A stretch of DNA of 64,000 bases from contig JBFHIZ010000001.1 of assembly GCA_041596215.1 (NCBI GenBank), positions 6,030-70,029 on the forward strand, read 5' to 3'. The stretch is from Lachnospiraceae bacterium. Its GTDB lineage: Bacteria; Bacillota; Clostridia; Lachnospirales; Lachnospiraceae. The translations under genes were made by a program, and so were the position numbers. Shown here one piece after another: positions 2 to 45,067 of the stretch; position 1 is the stretch's first letter; each line of letters begins with the position of its first letter. The notes beneath the pieces were generated by a model. That model did no database searches, had not been told where the DNA came from, and saw only the letters and a program-made list of their open reading frames with translations.

Positions 2-1135
2 GGAGAGAAAATAAATTTAGTTATATCACATCAGAAAAAGACATATTCTTTTTTTGGAGACGTCGTATCTCTAGCTAAAAATCAACCTTTGAATAATCAA
101 AAAATCATCAAACAATTAAATAAAACAACGGATACAAATTTTTCGTTTACCAACATTAACATACATACCGATTTTCGTAGTTTTCTTCCGATATCTAGTT
201 TAAATGAAATTCGAAGAACAGCATTACAAGAAATAGAAGAAGACTTGCTATTACCAACAAGACAAAAAGATTATAGAAAACCTAAACAACTAGTAAATTC
301 ACATAATCATGGATCTAAAATAAATATAACAAATAATACACATTCTTATAGTATTTTAATTTCTAACTTTCAACAATTAAAACTTGCCGTTTCTTATTCA
401 CCAGAACGTATTTATATTCCTATTTCACTTTTTGAACAAGAACAAGAAAACATAGAGAATTTACTATCAAATATGTCGACTATTGATTTCTATCTTGCAT
501 TACCGCATGTTTTTAGACAAAGTGATTTTCAAAAGAAAGAAACACTTTGGAAAACAATATTATTTGAGCCTTACATAAAAGGTGTATTGATAAGAAATCT
601 TGATGAAATTGGCTTTTTGAATGACATGCATTATTCAGGCATGAAACAATTAGATTATTTTGTATATTGTATGAACACATTTACAATTAATTTTTGGAAA
701 GAAAAGAATTATACTTGGACAAGTCCCTTAGAGTTAAATCATAAAGAATTAAATCATTTACCATTTCCAGATGAAGCTATGGTATATGGGCAAATTCCAT
801 TAATGATAAGTGCAAATTGTATTAGTAAAACACTTGGACAATGTAATATAAAACAACAAACTCATGTTTTAACAGATCGAATGCATAAAAATTTTATGGT
901 AAAAACAAATTGTATGTATTGTTATAATGTATTATATAATTGTGTTCCTTTATCCCTACATAATTATATCCATTCCTTCCATGAGAAAACACGATTAAGA
1001 TTAGAGTTTACTTTTGAAAACGAAGCATTATTTCATCAAATTTGCGATTTTTATTTACATGAGAATGTTCATGCAGAGAATCATTTTATAATTGATGAAT
1101 ATACAAATGGTCATTTTAATCGGGGTGTTGATTAA
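2..1135 (+). CDS. U32-family peptidase, C-terminal part (5' end cut by window edge)
   Basis: The frame is open from nt 2, so the listed TTG at 89 is not the real start. The Cys-rich block PLMISANC...CMYCYNVLYNCVPLSL and the terminal LRLEFTFE resemble U32 collagenase-like peptidases (motif memory only). Confidence 0.55.
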   Translation, partial: GEKINLVISHQKKTYSFFGDVVSLAKNQPLNNQKIIKQLNKTTDTNFSFTNINIHTDFRSFLPISSLNEIRRTALQEIEEDLLLPTRQKDYRKPKQLVNSHNHGSKINITNNTHSYSILISNFQQLKLAVSYSPERIYIPISLFEQEQENIENLLSNMSTIDFYLALPHVFRQSDFQKKETLWKTILFEPYIKGVLIRNLDEIGFLNDMHYSGMKQLDYFVYCMNTFTINFWKEKNYTWTSPLELNHKELNHLPFPDEAMVYGQIPLMISANCISKTLGQCNIKQQTHVLTDRMHKNFMVKTNCMYCYNVLYNCVPLSLHNYIHSFHEKTRLRLEFTFENEALFHQICDFYLHENVHAENHFIIDEYTNGHFNRGVD

Positions 1136-1170: not shown

Positions 1171-1199
1171 TTGATATTTTATACATTATGTTATAAAAT
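1171..1199 (+). promoter_or_regulatory. Candidate sigma-A promoter for the CheX-like/CheY operon
   Basis: TTGATA (1171-1176), 17-nt spacer, TAAAAT (1194-1199), about 30 nt upstream of the RBS GAGGAG. Confidence 0.35.
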
Positions 1200-1230: not shown

Positions 1231-2124
1231 ATGTTTGATAGAATTTTTGGTAAATATTTAGTGGAATCAGGCACGTTAACAAATGAACAACTACTTTCTG
1301 TTTATAAAAAACAGGAAAATAGTCGAAGCCGTTTAGGTTTAATTGCTGTCACTGAAAAAATGATGACCATTTCTCAAGTAGAAGAGGTAAACAAACTTCA
1401 AGCTATTATGGATAAAAGATTTGGTGATATTGCAAAAACCAGTGGGTATTTAACGGAAGATCAGGTAACCAGATTATTAACGCTTCAAGGAAATCGTTAT
1501 TTAGTATTTATACAGGCTATTGTAGATAAAGGTTTTTTGCCTTTAGATACCATTAATGATATTTTATCACTATATCAAAATGAACATGGCTATACACAAA
1601 CCGACTTAGAAAACTTAAAAAGTTGTGATATCAATCGCATATTACCTTATTTTGTTGATTTAAAAAATGAAATACTTTTTGAATTGATTGGGACCTTTGT
1701 TAGAACCGTATCAAGATTGATGAATTATAATGTATATATTGATACTGCATACGAAGTACAAACTTTTTCAGCACCACAAATCAGTTATCAAATTTCTGAT
1801 GGTGATCATAGGCTTTTCGTTTGTATTGCAGCTAATGAAGAAGCTATGTTAAACAGTGCAATTAGTTTTGCAGGTAAAAAATTTGTAGAAAATCAAGAAG
1901 ATGCTTTGGACGCAAATGCAGAATTTATTAATTGTGTAAATGGTCTTTTTGCAACGAAAGTAAGTAATGATGAACATCCCATGGAATTAGATATGTATCC
2001 ACCTTTATATCATGAATCTCTATCGACGATTACTGGCGAACATATTTATGTGATTCCAATTAGCTTTGATACAATTCATTTTGATTTATTAGTTTCTATT
2101 GATACGGATATTCAAATTAAATAA
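1231..2124 (+). CDS. MshEN/T2SSE_N-like repeat domain fused to a CheX/CheC-type CheY-P phosphatase domain
   Basis: RBS GAGAGGAG precedes the ATG. Residues 5-116 form 24-residue RLGxxLLxxGhhxxxxLxxxLxxQ-like units with 5-residue spacers. The C-terminal half carries D-x3-E-x2-N-x22-P (DANAEFIN...P, nt 1909-2001). Confidence 0.6.
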   Translation: MFDRIFGKYLVESGTLTNEQLLSVYKKQENSRSRLGLIAVTEKMMTISQVEEVNKLQAIMDKRFGDIAKTSGYLTEDQVTRLLTLQGNRYLVFIQAIVDKGFLPLDTINDILSLYQNEHGYTQTDLENLKSCDINRILPYFVDLKNEILFELIGTFVRTVSRLMNYNVYIDTAYEVQTFSAPQISYQISDGDHRLFVCIAANEEAMLNSAISFAGKKFVENQEDALDANAEFINCVNGLFATKVSNDEHPMELDMYPPLYHESLSTITGEHIYVIPISFDTIHFDLLVSIDTDIQIK

Positions 2125-2139
2125 TAGGAGGAAATATTT

Positions 2140-2502
2140 ATGGCGAAAATATACATAGTTGATGATTCTCGTGTATCTAGAAAAGTATTGGCAAGTATTT
2201 TAGAAGAAGCTGGCCATACAATTTGTGGTCAAGCCGAGAATGGAAAAATTGCAATTGATAATTATATTTCATGTAAACCAGATTTGATCACTCTTGATAT
2301 TACGATGCCTGTTATGGATGGGATTGAAGCCTTGTCATTAATCCGGGAAAATGATAAAAATGTTAAAATTTTAATGGTAACTGCTGCTGGACAAAAAGGA
2401 AAAGTTGTAGATGCTGTAAAACACGGTGCAACTGAATTTATCACAAAACCATTTGAGAATGATAAAATATTAAATGCAGTAAATAAATGTTTAAATGATT
2501 AA
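2140..2502 (+). CDS. cheY: Stand-alone CheY-like response regulator receiver
   Basis: 120 aa with DD (res 8-9), phospho-acceptor Asp in LDITMP, T in MVTA and K in TKPF. RBS AGGAGG; starts 15 nt after the upstream stop. Confidence 0.85.
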   Translation: MAKIYIVDDSRVSRKVLASILEEAGHTICGQAENGKIAIDNYISCKPDLITLDITMPVMDGIEALSLIRENDKNVKILMVTAAGQKGKVVDAVKHGATEFITKPFENDKILNAVNKCLND

Positions 2503-2539
2503 AAAAAGAGATTTGACTTTATGTCAAATCTCTTTTTTT
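2501..2539. terminator. Bidirectional rho-independent terminator
   Basis: AAAAAAAGAGATTTGAC / loop TTTAT / GTCAAATCTCTTTTTTT lies between convergent stops. Confidence 0.8.
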
Positions 2540-3593
2540 ATAAAATAGAAATAATTTTCAAATCTGGTGTCTTTGATAAATCAAGAACTTCTTCTTCTAA
2601 TTTTACGAGAGGTCTAGAAAGCATTCTTTTATTAATCAATATCACATCTGCCTTCATGTCATTACTTAGTAATACTTTTCTCCCTAATTGTGCATTTGCA
2701 ATATGTTCAAGAATTGGCCATATAATCCCTGAACCATATTTTTCTACTCCAGCATCAAGAAAACTATCAATAACTTCAAAAGCATTTTTGGATTTTCGGT
2801 ATATTCTTGCTGAAGTCATAGCAGCATATGCATCAACAATCGATATATATTTAGCAAAAATATCGATATCATCGTCTTTCAAATGATTTGGATATCCAGA
2901 GCCATCGCAACGTTCATGATGCATTAACGTAGCATTAATAATATGTTGATCAAACTTTTGATTTTTCATTAATTGATATCCAATGGTTGTATGTGTTTTC
3001 ATCCAATTATATTGAAAATCCGATAATTTACCAGGAGACCAGATTAAAGAATTTGGTAACGTGATTTTCCCGATATCATAAACAAATCCACAAAGTGTTA
3101 AAATTTTAATATCTTCAGAAGAAAGAGATAACCATCCGCCAAATACATGACTGATTAATGCCGCATTTAAACAATGTGCGTAGGTTAAATCATCTTCACT
3201 TGGAACCATGTTATAAAGCATATCTAATAATTGTTCACCTGATTTTGCATATTTCGAAATATTCTTATGTATTTGTAACAAATATTCTGTATTTAAAGGT
3301 TGTTTTTGATTAATAAACTGATCCACCATATATTTATAGGCATTTAAATTATTTTTATATTCCTGTTCAAATTTATGATAATCATCATCTAAGTGCATTT
3401 TTTCAAAGTGAGTAGTAGCAAAGTCTTTGGGCTCTTTAATTAAAACGGTCATAATGGAATATCTTTCTAACTTTGCAATAGAAAGTTCATCTAAAATATC
3501 ACCTTCCTTTAAGATAAGTTTATTTTTATAATTTAAAACGTCTTCCGCTAATTCCATTCCTTTTTTTAACGCCATCGTAGCAATATGTTTCAA
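2538..3593 (-). CDS. HD-GYP domain c-di-GMP phosphodiesterase
   Basis: HHERCDGSGYP and an HD motif (YDIGK). The N-terminus MKHIATMALKKGMELAEDV is typical of HD-GYP proteins. I prefer the TTG at 3593 (AAAGGAG 7 nt upstream) over the GTG at 3602, which overlaps the RBS. Confidence 0.8.
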   Translation of the reverse strand: MKHIATMALKKGMELAEDVLNYKNKLILKEGDILDELSIAKLERYSIMTVLIKEPKDFATTHFEKMHLDDDYHKFEQEYKNNLNAYKYMVDQFINQKQPLNTEYLLQIHKNISKYAKSGEQLLDMLYNMVPSEDDLTYAHCLNAALISHVFGGWLSLSSEDIKILTLCGFVYDIGKITLPNSLIWSPGKLSDFQYNWMKTHTTIGYQLMKNQKFDQHIINATLMHHERCDGSGYPNHLKDDDIDIFAKYISIVDAYAAMTSARIYRKSKNAFEVIDSFLDAGVEKYGSGIIWPILEHIANAQLGRKVLLSNDMKADVILINKRMLSRPLVKLEEEVLDLSKTPDLKIISIL

Positions 3594-3764
3594 TTGAATC
3601 ACTCCTTTTATGAGATAATTATATCTCTATAGTTAATTATATCTAACAATATAAATATTTGTCAAACAATACTTTTCTTATAAGGTGTTTTCTTTTGTAT
3701 CGTTTTTTTCGTATTTATGTTAAAATGAAGGCAGAAGATATTTATATACCATATGAGGTTATTT

Positions 3765-6687: not shown

Positions 6688-8367
6688 ATGAATTCAAATA
6701 CATTAGATGCTAAGATGTTAGCTAAAATGATGTTAGCTGGAGCAAAAAATTTAGAACATAAAAAGGAATGGATAAACGAATTAAATGTTTTTCCAGTTCC
6801 AGATGGTGATACTGGAACGAATATGACACTTACGATTATGGCAGCTGCAAAAGAAATCTCAAAATTAGAAAGTACGAATGATATTGATATGACAAGTATT
6901 TGTAAAGCCATTTCTTCTGGTTCTTTAAGAGGAGCAAGAGGAAATTCTGGAGTTATTCTATCGCAATTGCTTAGGGGATTCACCAAAATTATTAGTGATT
7001 ATGATGAAATTTCAATTGAAATTATTGCTGAAGCAATGGAAAAAGCAGTTGAAACCGCTTACAAAGCAGTGATGAAACCAAAAGAAGGAACAATTTTAAC
7101 GGTTGCAAAAGGTGCAGCTTCAAAAGCTATAGAATTAGCAAACGCAAAAGAAACTGATTTAGCAAAATGTTTTGAAGAAATTATTACTTATGCAGATGAA
7201 GTTTTACAAAAAACACCGGATATGTTGCCCGTTTTAAAACAAGCAGGTGTTGTTGATTCTGGTGGACAAGGGTTGTTAGAGATATTAAGAGGTGCTAATG
7301 ATGCCTATTTAGGTAAAGAAATTGATTTATCCATAGAAATGGAAGTTAAACCAGTTGCATCTACTATGTCTGAAGAATTTCAAGGAGAAATTCATATTAA
7401 ATTTGGGTATTGTACAGAATTTATAATTATGACAGACCGTGTATTTAATATTCAAAATGAAGTAGAATTTAAAGATTACTTAGAATCTTTAGGCGATTCC
7501 ATTGTTGTTGTTGCAGACGATGAAATTGTAAAAGTTCACGTACATACAAATGACCCAGGACTTGCTATTCAAGAAGCCTTAAAATATGGTTCCTTATCAA
7601 ATTTAAAAATTGATAATATGCGCTTAGAACATCATGAAAAAGTTATCAAAATGGCAGAGAATAAATCTTCTCATGAGGTAAAGAATATTCATGAAGTTCC
7701 ACCGAAAAAACCTTATGGATTTATTTCTGTTAGTGTTGGTGAAGGATTAAATGAATTATTTAAAGGATTGGGAGTAGATTATATTATTGAAGGTGGCCAA
7801 ACCATGAATCCAAGTACGGAAGATATGTTAAAGGCAATTGATAAAGTAAATGCAGATACCATATTTATTTTACCAAATAATTCCAATATCATTTTAGCAG
7901 CGACACAGGCGAAATCTTTAGTACAAGATAAAAAAATTATTGTTATTCCAACAAAAAACACCCCACAAGGAATAACTGCTTTAATTAACTTTATTCCTGA
8001 TTTATCTGATGAGGAAAATGAAGCTAGCATGACAAGTGAGCTCGAGAATGTAAAAACTGGTCAAGTAACATATGCGGTTCGCGATACCAAAATTGATGAT
8101 TTTGAAATTAAACAAGGGGATTATATGGGAATCGGTGACCATTCAATGCTTTCTGTTGGAAAAGATATGCAAACAGTTGCCTATGAAATGGTAAAGAAAA
8201 TGGCAGATAGTGATATTTCATTATTCAGTATTTACTATGGAAGTGAAGTAACAGAATCAGACGCCATGATTTTAAAAGAGAAAATAGAAAAGGATTTTTC
8301 GGATTGCGATGTTGAAATTCAATATGGAGGCCAACCAATATATTATTACATTGTTTCTGCTGAATAA
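6688..8367 (+). CDS. DAK2 domain fatty-acid-kinase-like protein (YloV-like)
   Basis: LNVFPVPDGDTGTNM and RGNSGVILSQ motifs. 559 aa, upstream of recG. Confidence 0.8.
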   Translation: MNSNTLDAKMLAKMMLAGAKNLEHKKEWINELNVFPVPDGDTGTNMTLTIMAAAKEISKLESTNDIDMTSICKAISSGSLRGARGNSGVILSQLLRGFTKIISDYDEISIEIIAEAMEKAVETAYKAVMKPKEGTILTVAKGAASKAIELANAKETDLAKCFEEIITYADEVLQKTPDMLPVLKQAGVVDSGGQGLLEILRGANDAYLGKEIDLSIEMEVKPVASTMSEEFQGEIHIKFGYCTEFIIMTDRVFNIQNEVEFKDYLESLGDSIVVVADDEIVKVHVHTNDPGLAIQEALKYGSLSNLKIDNMRLEHHEKVIKMAENKSSHEVKNIHEVPPKKPYGFISVSVGEGLNELFKGLGVDYIIEGGQTMNPSTEDMLKAIDKVNADTIFILPNNSNIILAATQAKSLVQDKKIIVIPTKNTPQGITALINFIPDLSDEENEASMTSELENVKTGQVTYAVRDTKIDDFEIKQGDYMGIGDHSMLSVGKDMQTVAYEMVKKMADSDISLFSIYYGSEVTESDAMILKEKIEKDFSDCDVEIQYGGQPIYYYIVSAE

Positions 8368-29326: not shown

Positions 29327-30787
29327 ATGTTTAAAAAGAAACCATGTCAGGAAGCTACTTGTATCATAAACTATGTAAACAGTATCGTAGAAGGAAACGA
29401 AAATCAATTACCCTTACCCAAATATCCCATTCATCAACAAATGTTATCTACATTTGAAAAACTACTAGAAAATCAAGAACATATGGCGAAAAATGCGAAG
29501 GAAACGATAGACATTGCTGTGTCTTTAAGTGAATTTGACGTACTCATGAAACATTCTTCCGAAAACTTGATATCATTTTCAAAAAATATAGCCAATTTAA
29601 GTGAATCGAATTTAGCGATTGTAGAAGAAACAAATGCAAGTATGTCTCAAGTTTCGAATACGATTAAAAATGCTTCAGAAACGCTTAATGTTGTGTCAGA
29701 AGATTCCAATGAACTAGTAAAAAACAATGAAAAAAGTTTATTAGATTTAAAAAATATAGTTATCTTAAAAGAAGATGTGATTTCTAGTGCGGAACATATG
29801 AAAACAGAAGTGAACACATTGATTAATCTTAGTCAAGAAATCGAAAACATTGTTGCAAGTGTACGTGAAATTGCAGATCAAACGAATTTATTAGCATTAA
29901 ATGCTTCCATCGAAGCAGCTAGAGCTGGAGAAAGTGGAAAAGGATTTGCAGTTGTTGCAAACGAAATTAAAAAATTAGCCGAAAACACAAAACAAAACTT
30001 AGACGGAATGAATAGCTTTGTTAACGATATTCGAACTTCTGCTTCAAATGGCAAACAAAGTATGGAAAGCACGATTACCTCCACATTATCCATGAGTTCG
30101 AAGATAGATGATGTTAATCATACCATTCATGATAATGTTGGAAAACTTAACGAATCCATTTCTAGCATTAATACCATAAAAGAATCCATGCAAGGAATTA
30201 GTATTGCCGCAGAGGAAATTAACCATGCGATGGATATATCTGGAAAAGATGCTGAAGAATTAAGTGATCTAACGAATACAATCTATGAAGATTCCATGGA
30301 ATTTAAAAAGGTAGCGGAACGCTTTGGTATTGTCGACAAAAAATTAGCAGAAGTAAATCGAAACAGCATTATGAATTTAAAAAATACACAAAATGCACTT
30401 TCTAACGAAGAAATTCAAAATATTATAAACAAAGCAATTCTTTCACATAAAAAATGGATGGAAAAACTTTTTGATATGGTGAATAATATGAAAGTAGATC
30501 CTTTACAAACCGATTCTAATAAGTGTGAATTCGGACTATATTATCATAGTATTGATATTACTTATCCAACAATTATTGAAAATTGGAAACTTATTGATAA
30601 AAACCATCATAATTTACACAATACTGGACAATTAGCTATTGAAGCAATTCAAAATAAAGATGCAAAAATGGCAAATGCATATTATGAAGAATGCAAACAG
30701 TATGGTTCTACTGTAATAGAAATACTTAATGAAGTTCAAAAAAGCATTACAAATGCTACTGAAAATGGCATTGAAATTTTCAAATAA
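29327..30787 (+). CDS. Soluble methyl-accepting chemotaxis protein with C-terminal CZB (zinc-binding) domain
   Basis: No TM segment. Signalling hairpin [40 protein letters not shown]-terminal H374-x3-W, C400-EFG, H427-x3-H431. Confidence 0.75.
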
Positions 30788-30846
30788 ATGTCTCGTTTCC
30801 TTATATTAAAAATATAAAATAATTTTATTGTTTTCCTAGGAGAAAT

Positions 30847-32754
30847 ATGCACAGTATTAAAAAAATCGTATATATATTAACCGTTACTCTATCTTTAATT
30901 ATTGTCACTTTAATTTTCACCAATTTTGCAATGCGAAATATTTTTACTTATATTGACGAAACAGAAGTAATAAATCATGATATTAGTGATTATTTAGATG
31001 GATTAAATCTTCCCATTCGAGTTGCCATAAACATATCAGAGCAAGAGGTAAATGATGATTTAGAAAAAAAAGACACCTTAAGTAACGCATTAACACAAAA
31101 TTTAGATACTCTAAAAAAGGATATTGATTTAACCAGCATAAATTTAGAACAAATACTTGATAAACAAAATGAAAATTTTATTATTTCAACAGGTTTTATT
31201 GACTATCTCCAATTTCAAAATGAGATTCAAACAATGATTACCCAATTATCTTTCATTAATGATTCCATTTCTATCATTGAAGGACGGAATATATTAAGCA
31301 ATGAAGATTATCTAAAACCATTAGAAGAAACGTATCTGGAACTACTAGATGTGTTTGAAGCCTATAATAATAAGCATCTTGTATACTCATCAGAGATTCG
31401 ATTTTCTTTTATGAATTTTTTTAATATTATATTAATTATTCTTTTTTTAACAATTATAGGATTGATTTTGATTATTTTTCGATTTATTCATACGGATCTA
31501 AATTTAATAAAAAAAACATATGAACAAATAGAACATCATGATTTTGATGCCAACAAAGTCCTTAATAAGCCTATTTTTAGTGAAGAAGTTTTAATTCAAA
31601 AAACAATAAAAACATATTTTAATAATCAAAAAGCTATTGATTATTTTACACAATTAGTGAGTAAAAATTACCTAATTGACGATATTATTGATCATTTATT
31701 AGAAATAACAAATGAACTCCTAGGCGTCGATCGCGTTGGAATTGCATTTTACGACAAAAAAACAGACACATTAACTGCAGAATATGGAATTGCAAATTAT
31801 GAGCCACTTTATCTTAATGTTGGTTATCGCGTAAATCTTAAATATAGCTCATTAAAAAATATCATTATTAATAAAACTGGATTTATTAATAACGATTTAT
31901 TATTATCCTCTAAAAAAAAACCAGACAGTGAATCTTTAAATCTAATTATTAAAGAAAAAATTAGTTCTAATTTAACCATACCACTAATTTCAGAAAATGA
32001 AGTGTTTGGAATCGTTTTTTTTAGTAGCAAAAAAAACAATCATTTTACGCAAAGTAATTATGATTTTACAGAAAATTTAATTTATCAATTAACAGGCATT
32101 CTTAATCGAGCTTATATTATGAAAGTCTTTCTTGTCAAAATGACAAATTCCTTTGCAAGAATTGTTGACAAAAAAGATATTGAGACAGGCGACCATTTAT
32201 TACGGATGGTCAAATATTCTGTTATTATTGCTCAATCATTACAAAATTTAAATGTAAATTCGCATAGTATTGATAATAAAATGATTTTAGAAATTGAACG
32301 TAATGCCGCAATTCATGATATTGGAAAAGTTGGTACGCCAGATTACATTCTTAAAAAACCAGGAAAATTAACAGAGGAAGAATTTCAAATCATGAAATTA
32401 CACGCTTCCATCGGGGGTGATATTTTTAAAGAATTAAATAATGAATTTGTTCAATTTAATTTTGATTTTTATAAAACAGCAGAAAACATTGCACGATATC
32501 ATCATGAAAAATGGGATGGGACTGGTTATCCTGAAAAAAGAAAACAATTTGATATTCCGTTAGAATCTCGAATCGTTGCACTAGGCGATGTTTTTGATGC
32601 AATTACTTCCAAACGAATTTATAAAGAAGCATGGAGCTTTGAATATTCAGTAGAATTTATTAAGTCACAAAGAGGAAAGCATTTTGATCCCATAATCGTA
32701 GATGCATTTATGAATGCAATTTCTGAAATTAAAGAAGTCTATATCAATCGATAA
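30847..32754 (+). CDS. Membrane sensor with GAF-like and HD-GYP domains
   Basis: Two TM segments (res ~8-28 and ~190-212) flank a ~160-aa external region. The central region is GAF-like. C-terminus has AAIHDIGKVG and HHEKWDGTGYP. Confidence 0.75.
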   Translation: MHSIKKIVYILTVTLSLIIVTLIFTNFAMRNIFTYIDETEVINHDISDYLDGLNLPIRVAINISEQEVNDDLEKKDTLSNALTQNLDTLKKDIDLTSINLEQILDKQNENFIISTGFIDYLQFQNEIQTMITQLSFINDSISIIEGRNILSNEDYLKPLEETYLELLDVFEAYNNKHLVYSSEIRFSFMNFFNIILIILFLTIIGLILIIFRFIHTDLNLIKKTYEQIEHHDFDANKVLNKPIFSEEVLIQKTIKTYFNNQKAIDYFTQLVSKNYLIDDIIDHLLEITNELLGVDRVGIAFYDKKTDTLTAEYGIANYEPLYLNVGYRVNLKYSSLKNIIINKTGFINNDLLLSSKKKPDSESLNLIIKEKISSNLTIPLISENEVFGIVFFSSKKNNHFTQSNYDFTENLIYQLTGILNRAYIMKVFLVKMTNSFARIVDKKDIETGDHLLRMVKYSVIIAQSLQNLNVNSHSIDNKMILEIERNAAIHDIGKVGTPDYILKKPGKLTEEEFQIMKLHASIGGDIFKELNNEFVQFNFDFYKTAENIARYHHEKWDGTGYPEKRKQFDIPLESRIVALGDVFDAITSKRIYKEAWSFEYSVEFIKSQRGKHFDPIIVDAFMNAISEIKEVYINR

Positions 32755-41765: not shown

Positions 41766-42341
41766 ATGAACCAAGAAGAAATTGAACTTGATTTAAAAAC
41801 AAAACTGTCCACTGCTCGTTATCATCATATTCTAGGTGTATCTGCAGCAGCCGCAAACTTAGCAATTAACTACACATACAATGTACGTTCTGCTATTCTT
41901 GCAGGTTTATTACATGACTGTGCAAAATGGATGAAACCTGAAGATATGCTTCAATATTGTAAAGATAACAATATCCAAATTTCTGAAATTGAAGAACAAA
42001 GTCCAACCTTGTTACATGGTAAAATTGGCGCAGACCTTGCGAAAAAAAAATATCATATTGAAGACCCTGAAATTTTACAGGCGATTATTTATCATACAAC
42101 AGGCCGTCCTGATATGACAATCCTTGATAAAATCATATATATTGCTGATTATATTGAACCAAATAGAAAAATGATAAAAGGATTATCCCAGATTAAAAAG
42201 ACTGCTTATATTGATTTGGATCAAACCATTTGTATGATTTCTAAAGATACCTTAGAATATTTAAAAAAAAGGCAAAAGATTATTGATCCCTTAACAAAAG
42301 AAACCTATGAATACTATAAGGAGAATTTTACATGTCATTAG
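41766..42341 (+). CDS. yqeK: HD-domain bis(5'-nucleosyl)-tetraphosphatase YqeK
   Basis: RYHHILGV, LLHDCAK, and YHTTGRPDMT. Standard nadD-yqeK-rsfS order. Confidence 0.8.
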   Translation: MNQEEIELDLKTKLSTARYHHILGVSAAAANLAINYTYNVRSAILAGLLHDCAKWMKPEDMLQYCKDNNIQISEIEEQSPTLLHGKIGADLAKKKYHIEDPEILQAIIYHTTGRPDMTILDKIIYIADYIEPNRKMIKGLSQIKKTAYIDLDQTICMISKDTLEYLKKRQKIIDPLTKETYEYYKENFTCH

Positions 42342-42676
42342 AAAAAAAAATGCTACAAACAATCATTACTTCATTAGAAGATAAGAAAGCAGAAGATATA
42401 AAAACCATTGATATTTCTACTATTTGTTCCTTTTCGAATTATTTTATCATTGCGAATGGTACAAATAATAATCAGGTACAAGCCATGGCAGATACCATTG
42501 AAGAAAATCTAAAACCACTTTACAAAGAAGAACACAAAGTAGAAGGATATCAAAAAGCAAACTGGATACTTTTAGATTATGGAAATATAATTATTCATTT
42601 ATTTGATCGCGATAGTCGAGATTTTTATAAACTTGAAAAAATGTGGAAAGATGGCAAAATTATCACCACTCCTTAA
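42332..42676 (+). CDS. rsfS: Ribosome silencing factor RsfS
   Basis: LEDKKAEDIKTIDIS...FIIANGTNNNQVQAMAD...WILLDYGNIIIHLF. Confidence 0.85.
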   Translation: MSLEKKMLQTIITSLEDKKAEDIKTIDISTICSFSNYFIIANGTNNNQVQAMADTIEENLKPLYKEEHKVEGYQKANWILLDYGNIIIHLFDRDSRDFYKLEKMWKDGKIITTP

Positions 42677-42692
42677 TGCTTTCAAATATTAT

Positions 42693-42735
42693 GGTAATAA
42701 AAAAAAACAATCGTAAGATTGTTTTTTTTATTACC
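42693..42735. terminator. Bidirectional rho-independent terminator
   Basis: GGTAATAAAAAAAAACAATC / GTAA / GATTGTTTTTTTTATTACC between rsfS (+) and lexA (-). Confidence 0.75.
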
Positions 42736-43348
42736 GCATATATCGAAAAACACCAAATACTTTTCCTAAAATACGAACATCTTTTACTAATATTGGATCC
42801 ATAGAATCATTTTCTGGTTGTAACCGAATATAATCTTTTTCCTTGTAAAAAGTTTTTACTGTAGCTGAATCATCAATCAATGCAACGACCATATCTCCAT
42901 TTCTAGCATCACATGTTTGTTCTACAAAAATTTGATCCCCATCAAAAATACCAGCATTTATCATGCTTTCACCTTTGACTTTTAACACAAAACAGTGTGC
43001 ATTTGGAGCCATATCCATAGGAATGGGAAAGTATCCATCAATATTTTCTTGTGCAAGTATTGGCTGACCAGCAGCAACCGTTCCTATAATAGGAATACTT
43101 GTTGTTTCACTTCGTAATAGTTGAAAACTATCATCAATAATTTCAATAGCTCTTGGCTTCGTTGGATCACGACGAATATATCCATTTTTTTCTAAGGTTT
43201 CTAAATGAGAGTGAACACTTGAAGTCGATTTCAAATTCACTGCATTGCAAATTTCTCTAACCGATGGTGGATACCCTTTACTAAAAATTTCTTCTTTCAT
43301 ATATTCTAAAATATCACGCTGTTTATTCGTTATTTTCTTTTGCTCCAT
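42731..43348 (-). CDS. lexA: SOS repressor LexA
   Basis: The ATG at 43348 follows GGAGGG (205 aa). w[16 protein letters not shown], cleavage site VAAGQP, catalytic GESM...K. The listed 262-aa ORF is an upstream overextension. Confidence 0.9.
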
Positions 43349-43396
43349 AAATATCTCCCTCCATATTATAATATGAATTAACTTTACCATAAAAAT

Positions 43397-43463
43397 TATC
43401 AAAAAGCAAACATATATTCTGTTTATTTTTTTTAAAAAAAGAAAGTATGTTTGCTTTTTGATA
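43397..43463. repeat. 18-bp perfect inverted repeat upstream of lexA
   Basis: TATCAAAAAGCAAACATA (43397-43414) and TATGTTTGCTTTTTGATA (43446-43463), separated by 31 AT-rich nt. Each arm abuts a degenerate GAAC-N4-GTTC-like box. Confidence 0.8.
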
Positions 43464-43504
43464 GAAAAACAGCACAAATATCTATATATATGTAAAATAC
43501 CCCC

Positions 43505-43534
43505 TTGACATAAGAACACTTGTTCTTGTATAAT
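43505..43534 (+). promoter_or_regulatory. Consensus sigma-A promoter of the yneA-like gene with an embedded SOS box
   Basis: TTGACA (43505-43510), 17-nt spacer, TATAAT (43529-43534). The spacer contains GAACACTTGTTC. Confidence 0.75.
43514..43525. promoter_or_regulatory. LexA operator (Cheo/SOS box) 1
   Basis: GAAC-ACTT-GTTC, a perfect core palindrome inside the promoter spacer. Confidence 0.75.
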
Positions 43535-43543
43535 CTATTTACA

Positions 43544-43555
43544 GAACAGATGTTC
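43544..43555. promoter_or_regulatory. LexA operator (Cheo/SOS box) 2
   Basis: GAAC-AGAT-GTTC, just downstream of the -10. A third weaker copy, TATC-ATAT-GTTC, lies at 43557-43568. Confidence 0.7.
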
Positions 43556-43587
43556 GTATCATATGTTCTGTTTAAGGAGGTAACAAA

Positions 43588-43977
43588 ATGAATTCAAATA
43601 ATACCGTATCACCACAAACTTTATATCGAAAAAGAAGTATTCAAAAACAAAAAAGAAGAGAAGCACAACTGAGAGGAAGGCTTTTCCTTATTGCTCTTAT
43701 TATAAGCATTCTTTTTGTTCTTTCCGGAATTTTTGGAACCTATTTTGCAAAAGCACAATCAACTGAAGAATTAACGAATTATAAATATTATACACAAATC
43801 ACTATTTCCTATGGAGAAAATTTATCAACCATAGCAGAAGAGTATATGGGAAAAGAGTATCCATCCATGCAATCCTATATTGACGAAATATGCTCGATTA
43901 ATAACATTGATAATCCCGATTCTATTTTAGAAGGGCAAACAATTATTGTTCCTTATTATTCAACAGAATTAAAATAA
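43588..43977 (+). CDS. yneA: YneA-like SOS-induced LysM protein (putative cell division inhibitor)
   Basis: Divergent from lexA. One N-terminal TM segment, then a C-terminal LysM domain (YTQITISYGENLSTIAEEY...GQTIIVPY). Same architecture and position as B. subtilis yneA. Confidence 0.65.
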   Translation: MNSNNTVSPQTLYRKRSIQKQKRREAQLRGRLFLIALIISILFVLSGIFGTYFAKAQSTEELTNYKYYTQITISYGENLSTIAEEYMGKEYPSMQSYIDEICSINNIDNPDSILEGQTIIVPYYSTELK

Positions 43978-43984
43978 TATTATT

Positions 43985-45067
43985 TTATTCTGACGGGTTT
44001 TCGGGTTCTTTATCTTCACGTAAATGTACAATGGAAGCAGCTCGTCTACGATTTGCGTCATCTTGAGCTGCATAGTGTTTTTTGGTTGTATTTACATCCT
44101 TATGTCCCAAAACATCGGCTACCAAGTAAATATCGCCTGTTTCACGGTATAGACTGGTTCCATAAGTACTTCGTAACTTATGAGGTGTTATTTTTTTTAA
44201 ACTTGTAATATTTGATGCATATTTTTTAACTAGTTTTTCAATGGATCGAACTGCTAACCTTTGATTTTGCAAAGATAAAAACAAAGCATTTTCATGTCCT
44301 GTTTGTGGAATTATTTTCTTTCTTTCTTCTAGATAATCTAGTAATGCCTTTTCTACTTCCTTCCCAAAATAAACGATGGATTCATAACCACCTTTTCGGA
44401 TAATTTTTATTCCATTAGAATGAAAATCAATATCCTCAATATCTAAACCAACACATTCCGATACACGTATTCCAGTTCCAAGTAGAAGAGTAAGTAGTGC
44501 CAAATCTCTTTTTTTTGTTTTCTTATGAAAGCGTAGCTGATTTTTTGTTAAATTTGTACCATTTTCTACTAAATTTAAAAGTCTAACCACTTCTTCTTGC
44601 TCTAGTCGAATAATTTCTTTTTCATGTAATTTTGGCATTGGAACGAGAGCAGCCACATTTTTTTCTATTTTTTCACAAAGAAAAAAATATTTATAAAAAG
44701 TACGTAAACTAGCTAATTTTCTGCTTTTACCACGTTCATCATTTGTTATTTCATTTCCATCTTTTTCGTATACCGTTAGGTATTCCAGGTATTCCTCAAT
44801 ATCTTCTCTGGTTAATTGATCCAACAAGGACAGTTTATATTCGGTGATTTTCATTTTATGACAAAATGGATTTGTTTCATGCAAAAAATCAAAAAAAACA
44901 TGTAAATCATAAGCGTACGCCAATTGTGTACGAATTTCCGTTGTTTCACGAATTCCTCGAAAAAATTCCTTACAAAAAGGGGGGAGTAATGCTAATGTTT
45001 CTCTTAAACGTTTTGTATTCTCTATTTTCATTTTTTGATGATATGTTTTATTATTTTCTTCTTTCAT
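43985..45067 (-). CDS. Xer-family tyrosine recombinase
   Basis: Catalytic pattern GTGIRVSE (R), HKLRSTYG (HxxR), LGHKDVNTTKKHY (H...Y). 360 aa with a long N-terminal core-binding region. No phage or ICE genes nearby. Confidence 0.7.
   Translation of the reverse strand: MKEENNKTYHQKMKIENTKRLRETLALLPPFCKEFFRGIRETTEIRTQLAYAYDLHVFFDFLHETNPFCHKMKITEYKLSLLDQLTREDIEEYLEYLTVYEKDGNEITNDERGKSRKLASLRTFYKYFFLCEKIEKNVAALVPMPKLHEKEIIRLEQEEVVRLLNLVENGTNLTKNQLRFHKKTKKRDLALLTLLLGTGIRVSECVGLDIEDIDFHSNGIKIIRKGGYESIVYFGKEVEKALLDYLEERKKIIPQTGHENALFLSLQNQRLAVRSIEKLVKKYASNITSLKKITPHKLRSTYGTSLYRETGDIYLVADVLGHKDVNTTKKHYAAQDDANRRRAASIVHLREDKEPENPSE

Follow-up and report, generated by a model that had tools for sequence, protein, structure and literature searches.

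Analysis of a 64,000-nucleotide stretch of DNA from a Lachnospiraceae bacterium (GenBank assembly GCA_041596215.1, contig JBFHIZ010000001.1, positions 6,030 to 70,029 of the forward strand; the whole stretch is referred to below as the window) showed that it encodes a 297-residue protein in which an array of four repeated units is fused to a CheX-class phosphatase, with a gene for a CheY-like receiver directly downstream. The array is homologous to MshEN_N, the cyclic di-GMP (c-di-GMP) binding module of MshE, and the sequence and a predicted structure give about an even chance that the protein is a phosphatase of phosphorylated CheY (CheY-P) tuned by c-di-GMP at one site, formed by units 2 and 3. 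This reading is based on the homology, on the predicted fold, and on the conservation of ligand-contact residues by units 2 and 3 out of the four.

The initial annotation of this locus, made from the sequence alone, knew of no characterised example of such a protein. The protein is indeed uncharacterised, but the architecture had already been catalogued: Wang et al. 2016 (Nat Commun 7:12481) list '(MshEN_N)2-CheX', with Glov_2742 of Geobacter lovleyi, for Deltaproteobacteria and Firmicutes in their Supplementary Table 4, without a reference. The window protein is a Lachnospiraceae member of this architecture, which is therefore not itself new. The present analysis adds the one-site model (units 2 and 3) with its Asn54, the strict linkage to CheY together with recurrent fusions, and the demotion of a neighbouring HD-GYP gene. 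The features of the fusion gene and of its downstream partner are as follows, in window coordinates.

1231..2124, + strand: gene for the (MshEN_N-like)x4-CheX protein, 297 residues (open reading frame list, NF053729 and Pfam CheX matches)
1243..1314, + strand: unit 1 (residues 5-28), degenerate hairpin (column counts, AlphaFold2 model, relaxed motif)
1330..1401, + strand: unit 2 (residues 34-57), first half of the putative c-di-GMP site
1417..1488, + strand: unit 3 (residues 63-86), second half of the putative c-di-GMP site, with the best-preserved motif
1504..1578, + strand: unit 4 (residues 92-116), degenerate hairpin
1579..1668, + strand: two short linker helices (residues 117-146) with a conserved LKSCDIDRIVP
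1669..2121, + strand: CheX-class phosphatase domain (residues ~147-297; Foldseek, PF13690)
1909..2004, + strand: single active-site signature D227-x3-E231-x2-N234 ... P257/P258, on helix 222-245 (pattern search)
2140..2502, + strand: CheY-like single-domain receiver, 120 residues, likely substrate (Response_reg, E = 5e-30)

The array is periodic. Its units lie at residues 5-28, 34-57, 63-86 and 92-116 and are separated by the 5-residue spacers ENSRS, AIMDK and GNRYL. When the array was compared with itself at a lag of 29 residues, 24 of the 91 pairs were identical, and the BLOSUM62 sum was +47, as against -78 +/- 20 in shuffled sequences (z = 6.3). None of 5000 shuffles reached this score, even with the best of lags 10-59. 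The 24-residue units, their exact 5-residue spacers and the degenerate fourth unit described in the initial annotation were thus confirmed. Unit 4 was weak, sharing only 2 to 6 of 24 residues with the other units.

Several independent comparisons related the array to MshEN_N. The NCBIfam model NF053729 ('cyclic di-GMP-binding domain, MshE-related') matched the whole protein at 44.5 bits, above its cut-off of 38, and matched all 60 of the aligned relatives, so that the search with an MshEN model that had been proposed at the outset was successful. A single-sequence phmmer search of the Protein Data Bank (PDB) found the V. cholerae MshE structure 5HTL at E = 0.12 only; significance came with a family profile of residues 1-120, which gave E = 2e-5 for Thermus PilF (6F8L) and E = 2e-4 for MshE (5HTL). 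The match to MshE aligned residues 30-86 with MshE 5-61, and the matches to PilF used the register 58-112 (units 3 and 4).

An AlphaFold2 model of the 297-residue protein, built on the 60 relatives, had a mean predicted local distance difference test score (pLDDT) of 94.2 and a predicted template modelling score (pTM) of 0.85; a second model had a pLDDT of 93. In Foldseek comparisons the predicted model superimposed on MshE with bound c-di-GMP (5HTL) over 55 columns at 0.7-1.0 A with 33% identity, and on the c-di-GMP-bound GSPIIB domain of PilF over 53 columns at 1.0-1.2 A. The value of 33% was obtained by one ungapped 55-column register only, in which residues 32-86 (units 2 and 3) align with MshE 7-61, and the profile alignment to MshE was in this same register. 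The whole eight-helix array had no match among the solved structures searched with Foldseek. Taken together, the NF053729 match, the profile matches in the PDB and the Foldseek superposition established the homology of the N-terminal array to the MshEN_N module. The likeness is real at the level of profile and fold and falls short of an exact motif match, so the earlier claim that the units match the MshEN motif stands for the former (44.5 bits with NF053729, superposition on 5HTL) and fails for both the strict and the relaxed forms of the motif. Sub-threshold Pfam matches to DUF4388 and FumaraseC_C also recurred across the family in the array, and Foldseek gave weak matches to the C-terminal helices of aspartase; these probably reflect generic similarity among helical hairpins.

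The C-terminal half is a CheX domain. Pfam CheX (PF13690) scored 29.0 bits against a gathering score of 27 in the window protein and matched all 60 relatives, in agreement with the expectation of the initial annotation, which had proposed this search too; the NCBIfam CheX model NF041094 matched 21 of the 60. The C-terminal half of the model resembled the CheX structures 3HM4, 1XKO, 6VPW and 3HZH_B, the last being CheX as it occurs in the Borrelia complex CheX-CheY3-BeF3, with target-normalised template modelling (TM) scores of 0.65-0.78, compared with 0.41-0.46 for CheC and FliY and 0.29-0.47 for FliM. The predicted fold is accordingly that of CheX rather than of CheC, FliY or FliM. There is one D-x3-E-x2-N-x22-P site (residues 227-257, nucleotides 1909-2001), on the long helix 222-245, and the complete signature noted earlier was therefore upheld. 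D227, E231, N234, N237, G238 and P258 were invariant in the 60 sequences, and P257 was found in 38 of them. The site follows the consensus and mechanism published for CheX (PMC12887009), where Glu and Asn of the E-x2-N element enter the active site of CheY. That the protein dephosphorylates CheY-P is suggested by this site and, as described below, by the conservation of the operon and by natural fusions to receiver domains.

The start codon of cheY lies 15 nt past the stop codon of the cheX-like gene and is preceded by an AGGAGG ribosome-binding site. The receiver contains D8, D9, D53, T81 and K103. Its nearest solved proteins are CheYs (P. horikoshii 6ER7, 8e-34; T. maritima 1TMY, 6e-30; Borrelia CheY3, 2e-19), and it did not reach the cut-off of any NCBIfam CheY equivalog. 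The close spacing had been noticed in the initial annotation, and comparison with other genomes extended it well beyond this locus: a receiver gene was found 13-155 nt downstream of the cheX-like gene in 86 of 87 loci, and directly downstream in all 80 related species (here and below, counts out of 80 species refer to the best 80 of at least 567 loci in species-representative genomes). The sole exception, locus L018, has an insertion sequence transposase (7010-8257, minus strand) inserted exactly between the cheX-like gene and cheY.

In some relatives the two proteins are fused. Array-CheX-receiver triple fusions were found in at least eight distinct 50%-identity clusters, and receiver residues were intact in the two that were read directly (P0025 and P0098). 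The fusions are 417-440 residues long (P0025, P0098, P0138, P0161, P0201, P0218, P0236, P0238 and P0262). The strict downstream linkage, the fusions and the CheY-like character of the receiver together indicate that CheY is the conserved functional partner of the phosphatase, and most simply its substrate.

The family is large and uniform. There were 657 matches in a word index, nearly all about 295 residues long, and the N-terminal profile found 2927 cluster representatives, 929 of them at E <= 1e-10. The best 80 of the at least 567 loci were almost all from Lachnospiraceae (Butyrivibrio, Kineothrix, Herbinix, Mobilitalea and Ca. Colinaster), and gut and rumen Lachnospiraceae are where the family is concentrated; the sources label its members just 'CheX' or 'hypothetical'. 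Butyrivibrio species are flagellated. In 12 of the 80 species the cheX-cheY pair abuts the tail of a cheA-cheW-cheC-cheD-fliA operon.

The positions that contact c-di-GMP in MshE are known (Wang et al. 2016). The Arg at position 1 of each unit makes a stacking contact with guanine; a hydrophobic clamp is made up of the Leu residues at positions 2, 17 and 21; the amides of Gly 3 and of the following residue read O6 and N7; and Gln 24 contacts ribose and phosphate. Conservation at these positions was counted by column over the 60 relatives, unit by unit. In unit 3, R63, F64, G65, D66, L82, L83 and Q86 were invariant, V79 was found in 58 of the 60 and G72 in 56, and 54 of the 60 members had a match starting at residue 63 to the relaxed motif of Wang et al., [RKPN]hGxxhhxx[GAS]hhxxxxhxxxhxx[QNKRYWST]. 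In unit 2, R/K34, L35, G36 and Q57 were invariant or nearly so; K43 takes the place of the turn Gly, and an invariant N54, at position 21, takes the place of the guanine-stacking Leu. The outer units are different. Unit 1 has Ile rather than Arg at position 1, Gly7 was Gly in 39 and Ala in 21 of the 60, Gln28 was present in 37, and the residues at its positions 1 and 11 do not fit the relaxed motif. Unit 4 has no Arg at position 1, its terminal Gln is displaced by one residue, and it has Val or Ile at the Gly of position 3, which resembles the G40I mutant that abolished binding (Wang et al. 2016). The ligand-contact residues, as read from the sequences, are kept by the two central units only, and the three units that the initial annotation set apart from the degenerate fourth are not equivalent.

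The predicted structures agree with this division. The basic residues R32, R/K34, K62 and R63 correspond to R7, R9, R37 and R38 of MshE. Both models begin the first helix of unit 2 at L35 and that of unit 3 at F64, so that the Gly amides are free, as they are in MshE with its ligand. In units 1 and 4 the first helix begins earlier, by 3-4 residues, with helix 2-12 of unit 1 and helix 89-100 of unit 4 running across the start of the motif. The conservation of the contacts, the 32-86/7-61 register and the helix starts therefore lead to a one-site interpretation, in which the array would be one candidate c-di-GMP site (units 2 and 3) between two degenerate hairpins. Binding of c-di-GMP by this protein is plausible and not assured.

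The segment between the array and CheX is also conserved. In the linker LKSCDIDRIVP (residues 127-137, nucleotides ~1609-1641), S131 was invariant and L129 and D133 were present in at least 90% of the sequences; the model has linker helices at 123-130 and 134-141. This segment is a candidate signal-relay element.

A mechanism can be proposed from these parts. The four MshEN_N-type hairpins (the first 116 residues) would be arranged as a compact array of eight helices on a CheX-class CheY-P phosphatase, and the dedicated, co-transcribed CheY-like receiver would be the most likely substrate. The central hairpins (residues 34-57 and 63-86) are predicted to pack into a bundle of four helices, which can be superimposed on MshEN_N with bound c-di-GMP. 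Binding of c-di-GMP in the central site would then change the activity of the phosphatase and with it the lifetime of CheY-P. The output might be a direct effect on motor switching, or the CheX/CheY pair might act as a tunable phosphate sink for CheA. Such a sink is suggested because CheY is so strictly linked and because triple fusions recur, and in the triple-fusion lineages the tethering of the receiver points to a role as a phosphate sink or to one within the molecule. What we infer here is that c-di-GMP binds, in which direction it would regulate the phosphatase, and that the output is flagellar.

Usually c-di-GMP curbs motility through PilZ-type brakes or through transcription. If the proposal is right, the fusion in cis of a receptor to a CheY-P phosphatase would allow chemotactic switching to be adjusted by the messenger at the level of the enzyme, and this would be the first case of this second messenger acting directly on the enzyme that sets the lifetime of CheY-P. 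In its wider form the proposal is that hundreds of Lachnospiraceae species have a c-di-GMP-operated phosphatase or, with a dedicated or fused CheY, a phosphate sink, operated through a non-canonical MshEN_N site in which a canonical half-motif is combined with one that bears Asn, the two degenerate hairpins serving as buttresses. We regard this wider form as possible, with somewhat less than an even chance of being correct. With the architecture known since 2016, what gives the result its value is the well-defined experiment that it allows, and not the discovery of a new kind of system. The hypotheses, which mutation can test, are a single site made up of residues 34-86, with G36, N54, R63, G65 and Q86 as its key residues, catalysis by E231 and N234, and the co-encoded CheY as the substrate.

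Several observations weigh against a c-di-GMP-tuned phosphatase with its site at units 2 and 3. No unit of the window protein matched either the strict MshEN motif, RLGxx(L/V/I)(L/V/I)xxG(L/V/I/F)(L/V/I)xxxxLxxxLxxQ, or the relaxed one. Unit 3, the only unit that matched the relaxed motif among the 60 family members, failed it in this protein at K69 alone, a residue unique to this protein, and unit 2 failed it across the whole family, always at K43 and N54. N54 sits at one of the hydrophobic contact positions of MshE, where single changes of the conserved contacts lowered the affinity more than 10-fold (Wang et al. 2016). When NF053729 was scored by unit pair, the values were 34.1, 26.9 and 18.0 bits, all under the cut-off, and the top pair was units 1 and 2 rather than 2 and 3. 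The Foldseek E-values for so short a module were weak (0.2-0.5), with a probability of 1.00, and the pairing of units 2 and 3 is based on identity arithmetic and secondary-structure boundaries. Pfam T2SSE_N (PF05157), the third model whose use had been proposed, did not match the window protein at E <= 1 or any of the 60 relatives at E <= 0.01. This last result does not count against homology to MshEN_N, because the PF05157 model includes an MshEN_C subdomain that is absent from the window protein.

Three further points on the same side concern the biology and the literature. A sigma-D/sigma-28 promoter (TAAA-N14-17-CCGATAT, at most one mismatch, within 200 nt upstream) was found at 1 of 87 loci, which equals the rate in shuffled sequences (0.9%), and membership of the flagellar regulon is therefore without promoter-level evidence. 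In the window and in its close relatives the cheX-cheY pair lies between ruvAB-zapA-U32 peptidase and the DUF2953/YtfJ sporulation genes, with no che neighbours. The binding assays of Wang et al. 2016 (Supplementary Table 6) covered MshE, PilB, GspE, Bd2402 and the CheA insert, and the CheX fusion was not among them; no experimental study of any MshEN-CheX protein was found in literature searches, including work after 2016, and the two recent Vibrio papers on CheX deal with the stand-alone protein.

The alternative that survives best, although we consider it unlikely, is that the array is a degenerate scaffold derived from MshEN_N that no longer binds any nucleotide and that helps the protein to dimerise, to be localised or to dock (on receptor arrays or the motor, for example), with the protein acting as a constitutive phosphatase for its own CheY. 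The failure of every unit of the window protein to match the strict and relaxed motifs would be expected of such a scaffold, as would the missing Arg and Gly contacts of units 1 and 4 and the scores of the unit pairs under the NF053729 cut-off. In XpsE, loss of binding goes together with changes at the positions of K43 and N54 of unit 2, and many MshEN domains have probably lost binding (Wang et al. 2016). However, invariance in the family clusters at the ligand contacts of units 2 and 3 and at the corresponding basic patch, and a pure scaffold would have no need of this. The deviant N54 is itself invariant, and the sub-angstrom superposition is on the liganded conformation.

It is rather improbable that the CheX/receiver pair is a separate phosphorelay module outside flagellar chemotaxis, acting in cell division, sporulation or surface behaviour. 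This would fit the position of the pair among ruvAB-zapA-U32 peptidase (with ftsW or a penicillin-binding protein gene also nearby in some close relatives) and DUF2953/YtfJ, the result of the sigma-D promoter search, and the triple fusions, in which a tethered receiver would be unable to diffuse freely to the motor. Yet the receiver is nearest to bona fide CheYs, 12 of the 80 species have the pair beside a fla/che operon, Butyrivibrio and other Lachnospiraceae are where the family is concentrated, and a methyl-accepting chemotaxis protein (MCP) is encoded in the window. The description of the locus as an orphan module in the initial annotation was correct in that no cheA or cheW is present in the window, but it was overstated in view of this MCP and of the species in which the pair abuts a che operon.

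A third alternative, which we judge slightly less probable again, is that the array forms two independent c-di-GMP sites, from units 1+2 and units 3+4, as the notation '(MshEN_N)2' implies. In the alignment of Wang et al. 2016, Glov_2742 is divided into an MshEN_N module of residues 1-60 and another of residues 61-119, units 1 and 2 are the pair with the top NF053729 score (34.1 bits), and the PilF profile matches fall on units 3 and 4. Each of these pairs would contain one defective half-site, however: unit 1 is without Arg and has a variable Gly and Gln, and unit 4 has the Val or Ile that recalls G40I; the structural and sequence matches to MshE fall on units 2 and 3 instead. The least probable alternative, a central site that binds another cyclic dinucleotide such as 3'3'-cGAMP (cyclic GMP-AMP) through specificity retuned by the invariant Asn54, draws on the weak binding of cGAMP by MshEN_N (Wang et al. 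2016) and on the His that the Geobacter homologue has at the position of N54, which suggests a family-specific contact, but G36 and G65, whose amides would read guanine O6 and N7, are intact and favour two guanines, and cGAMP synthases are without evidence in the window.

The remaining features of the locus concern its transcription and the gene that converges on the operon.

2500..2540, both strands: bidirectional intrinsic terminator hairpin common to cheY and the convergent gene (direct folding)
2538..3602, - strand: convergent HD-GYP-family gene, 354-residue open reading frame (351 residues as called in locus L001; HD_5, E = 1.5e-20)
1171..1199, + strand: candidate sigma-70-like promoter upstream of the operon, TTGATA-17-TAAAAT (consensus scan only, 10 of 12 positions)

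The hairpin at 2500-2540 spans the stop codons of both convergent genes. It has a perfect 18-bp stem and a 5-nt loop, with an A-run on one flank and a T-run on the other, and a folding free energy of -22 kcal/mol (z = -7.8); none of 200 shuffled sequences folded equally well. A generic terminator scan of the locus detected nothing, and the hairpin was seen by direct folding; the scan missed it because the A and T runs pair with each other.

The convergent protein matched HD_5 at 74 bits (E = 1.5e-20) and HD at 42.6 bits, and has HHERCDGSGYP at residues 228-238. Its HD dyad is Y175-D176: alignment with PmGH (4MCW) and with the second HD-GYP protein of the window placed Tyr in the position of the metal-ligand His of HDIGK. 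HD-GYP proteins with an altered HD dyad have been reported to be inactive (bioRxiv 10.1101/2021.11.05.467447), and this one may be a binding-only or altered-metal variant, possibly not an active phosphodiesterase. The gene is absent from L002, a relative that is 72% identical and otherwise syntenic, and it recurs in just 1 of the 80 species (L067), whose orthologue is 56% identical and is placed convergently in the same way (L067 3118-4173, minus strand). That orthologue, the only one found, also has Tyr. The HD-GYP gene does converge on the hairpin it has in common with cheY, as the initial annotation described; the association implied there was not borne out across species, and the gene was rejected as a conserved functional partner. 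As evidence for a connection to c-di-GMP it is weak.

A second juxtaposition of chemotaxis and c-di-GMP genes occurs within the same 64 kb. The MCP, a 486-residue protein with a C-terminal chemoreceptor zinc-binding (CZB) domain, is encoded at window 29327-30787 (plus strand). Directly 3' of it is a gene for a 635-residue GAF-HD-GYP protein with a canonical HD dyad, identified with Pfam, and the pair spans window 29327-32754 (plus strand). No cheA, cheW, cheC, cheD or fliA was detected by tblastn in the 64-kb window. Upstream of the operon, window 89-1135 (plus strand) encodes the C-terminal part of a U32 peptidase of about 723 residues (DUF3656 domain), cut at the start of the window, and the gene order ruvA-ruvB-zapA-U32 peptidase-cheX-cheY was syntenic in relatives. 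Further along, the cumulative GC skew reaches its maximum near 42 kb, the genes change from all-plus to all-minus at about 42.7 kb, and a phage-integrase/Xer-type recombinase gene lies at 43985-45067 (minus strand). Either a replication terminus or the boundary of a rearrangement would fit these features at about 42000-44000.

The closest known relative in architecture is Glov_2742, which, like the window protein, has four tandem 24-residue units with 5-residue spacers followed by CheX. The N-terminus of the window protein aligned with the published N-terminus of Glov_2742 without gaps over 118 residues, at 27% identity (E = 4e-15). Both have a polar residue at position 21 of unit 2, His in Glov_2742 and Asn54 here. 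They differ in that Glov_2742 keeps Gly at the turn of unit 2 and at position 3 of unit 4, where the Lachnospiraceae family has Lys and Val/Ile, respectively.

In the MshE N-terminal domain of V. cholerae (5HTL), two helical hairpins of 24 residues are joined by 5 residues, as in units 2 and 3, and both halves have Arg, Leu/Phe, Gly and Gln at positions 1, 2, 3 and 24 in MshE and in the two central units alike. Unlike MshE, the window protein has no MshEN_C and no ATPase of the type II secretion or type IV pilus systems, has two extra degenerate hairpins beside the core, and has K43 for the turn Gly and N54 for Leu29. Its other half has the fold of the stand-alone CheX proteins of T. maritima (1XKO), B. 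burgdorferi (3HZH) and V. vulnificus (6VPW), with the same single D/S-x3-E-x2-N on a long helix and a conserved Gly after it. The window protein is only 12-22% identical to these proteins, has an N-terminal extension of 146 residues, and has an Asn-to-Pro spacing of x22/x23, compared with x21/x22 in the published CheX consensus.

Two other systems join c-di-GMP to chemotaxis proteins. The CheA of Aeromonas veronii contains an inserted MshEN_N and binds c-di-GMP with a dissociation constant of 2.6 uM (Wang et al. 2016), and this MshEN_N within a core chemotaxis enzyme is a precedent for direct input of c-di-GMP to the CheA/CheY phosphorelay. It is unlike the window protein in that the receptor is in the kinase, is a single module, and is proteobacterial. 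In V. cholerae, PlzC inhibits CheX in a c-di-GMP-independent manner (PNAS 2026, PMC12799141). The PlzC-CheX pair and other PilZ effectors (YcgR, PlzD) join the c-di-GMP network to the CheY-P phosphatase or to the motor, as is proposed here; PlzC, however, is a separate PilZ protein that acts in trans on a stand-alone CheX, whereas in the window protein a receptor-like domain that is not PilZ is fused to the phosphatase in cis.

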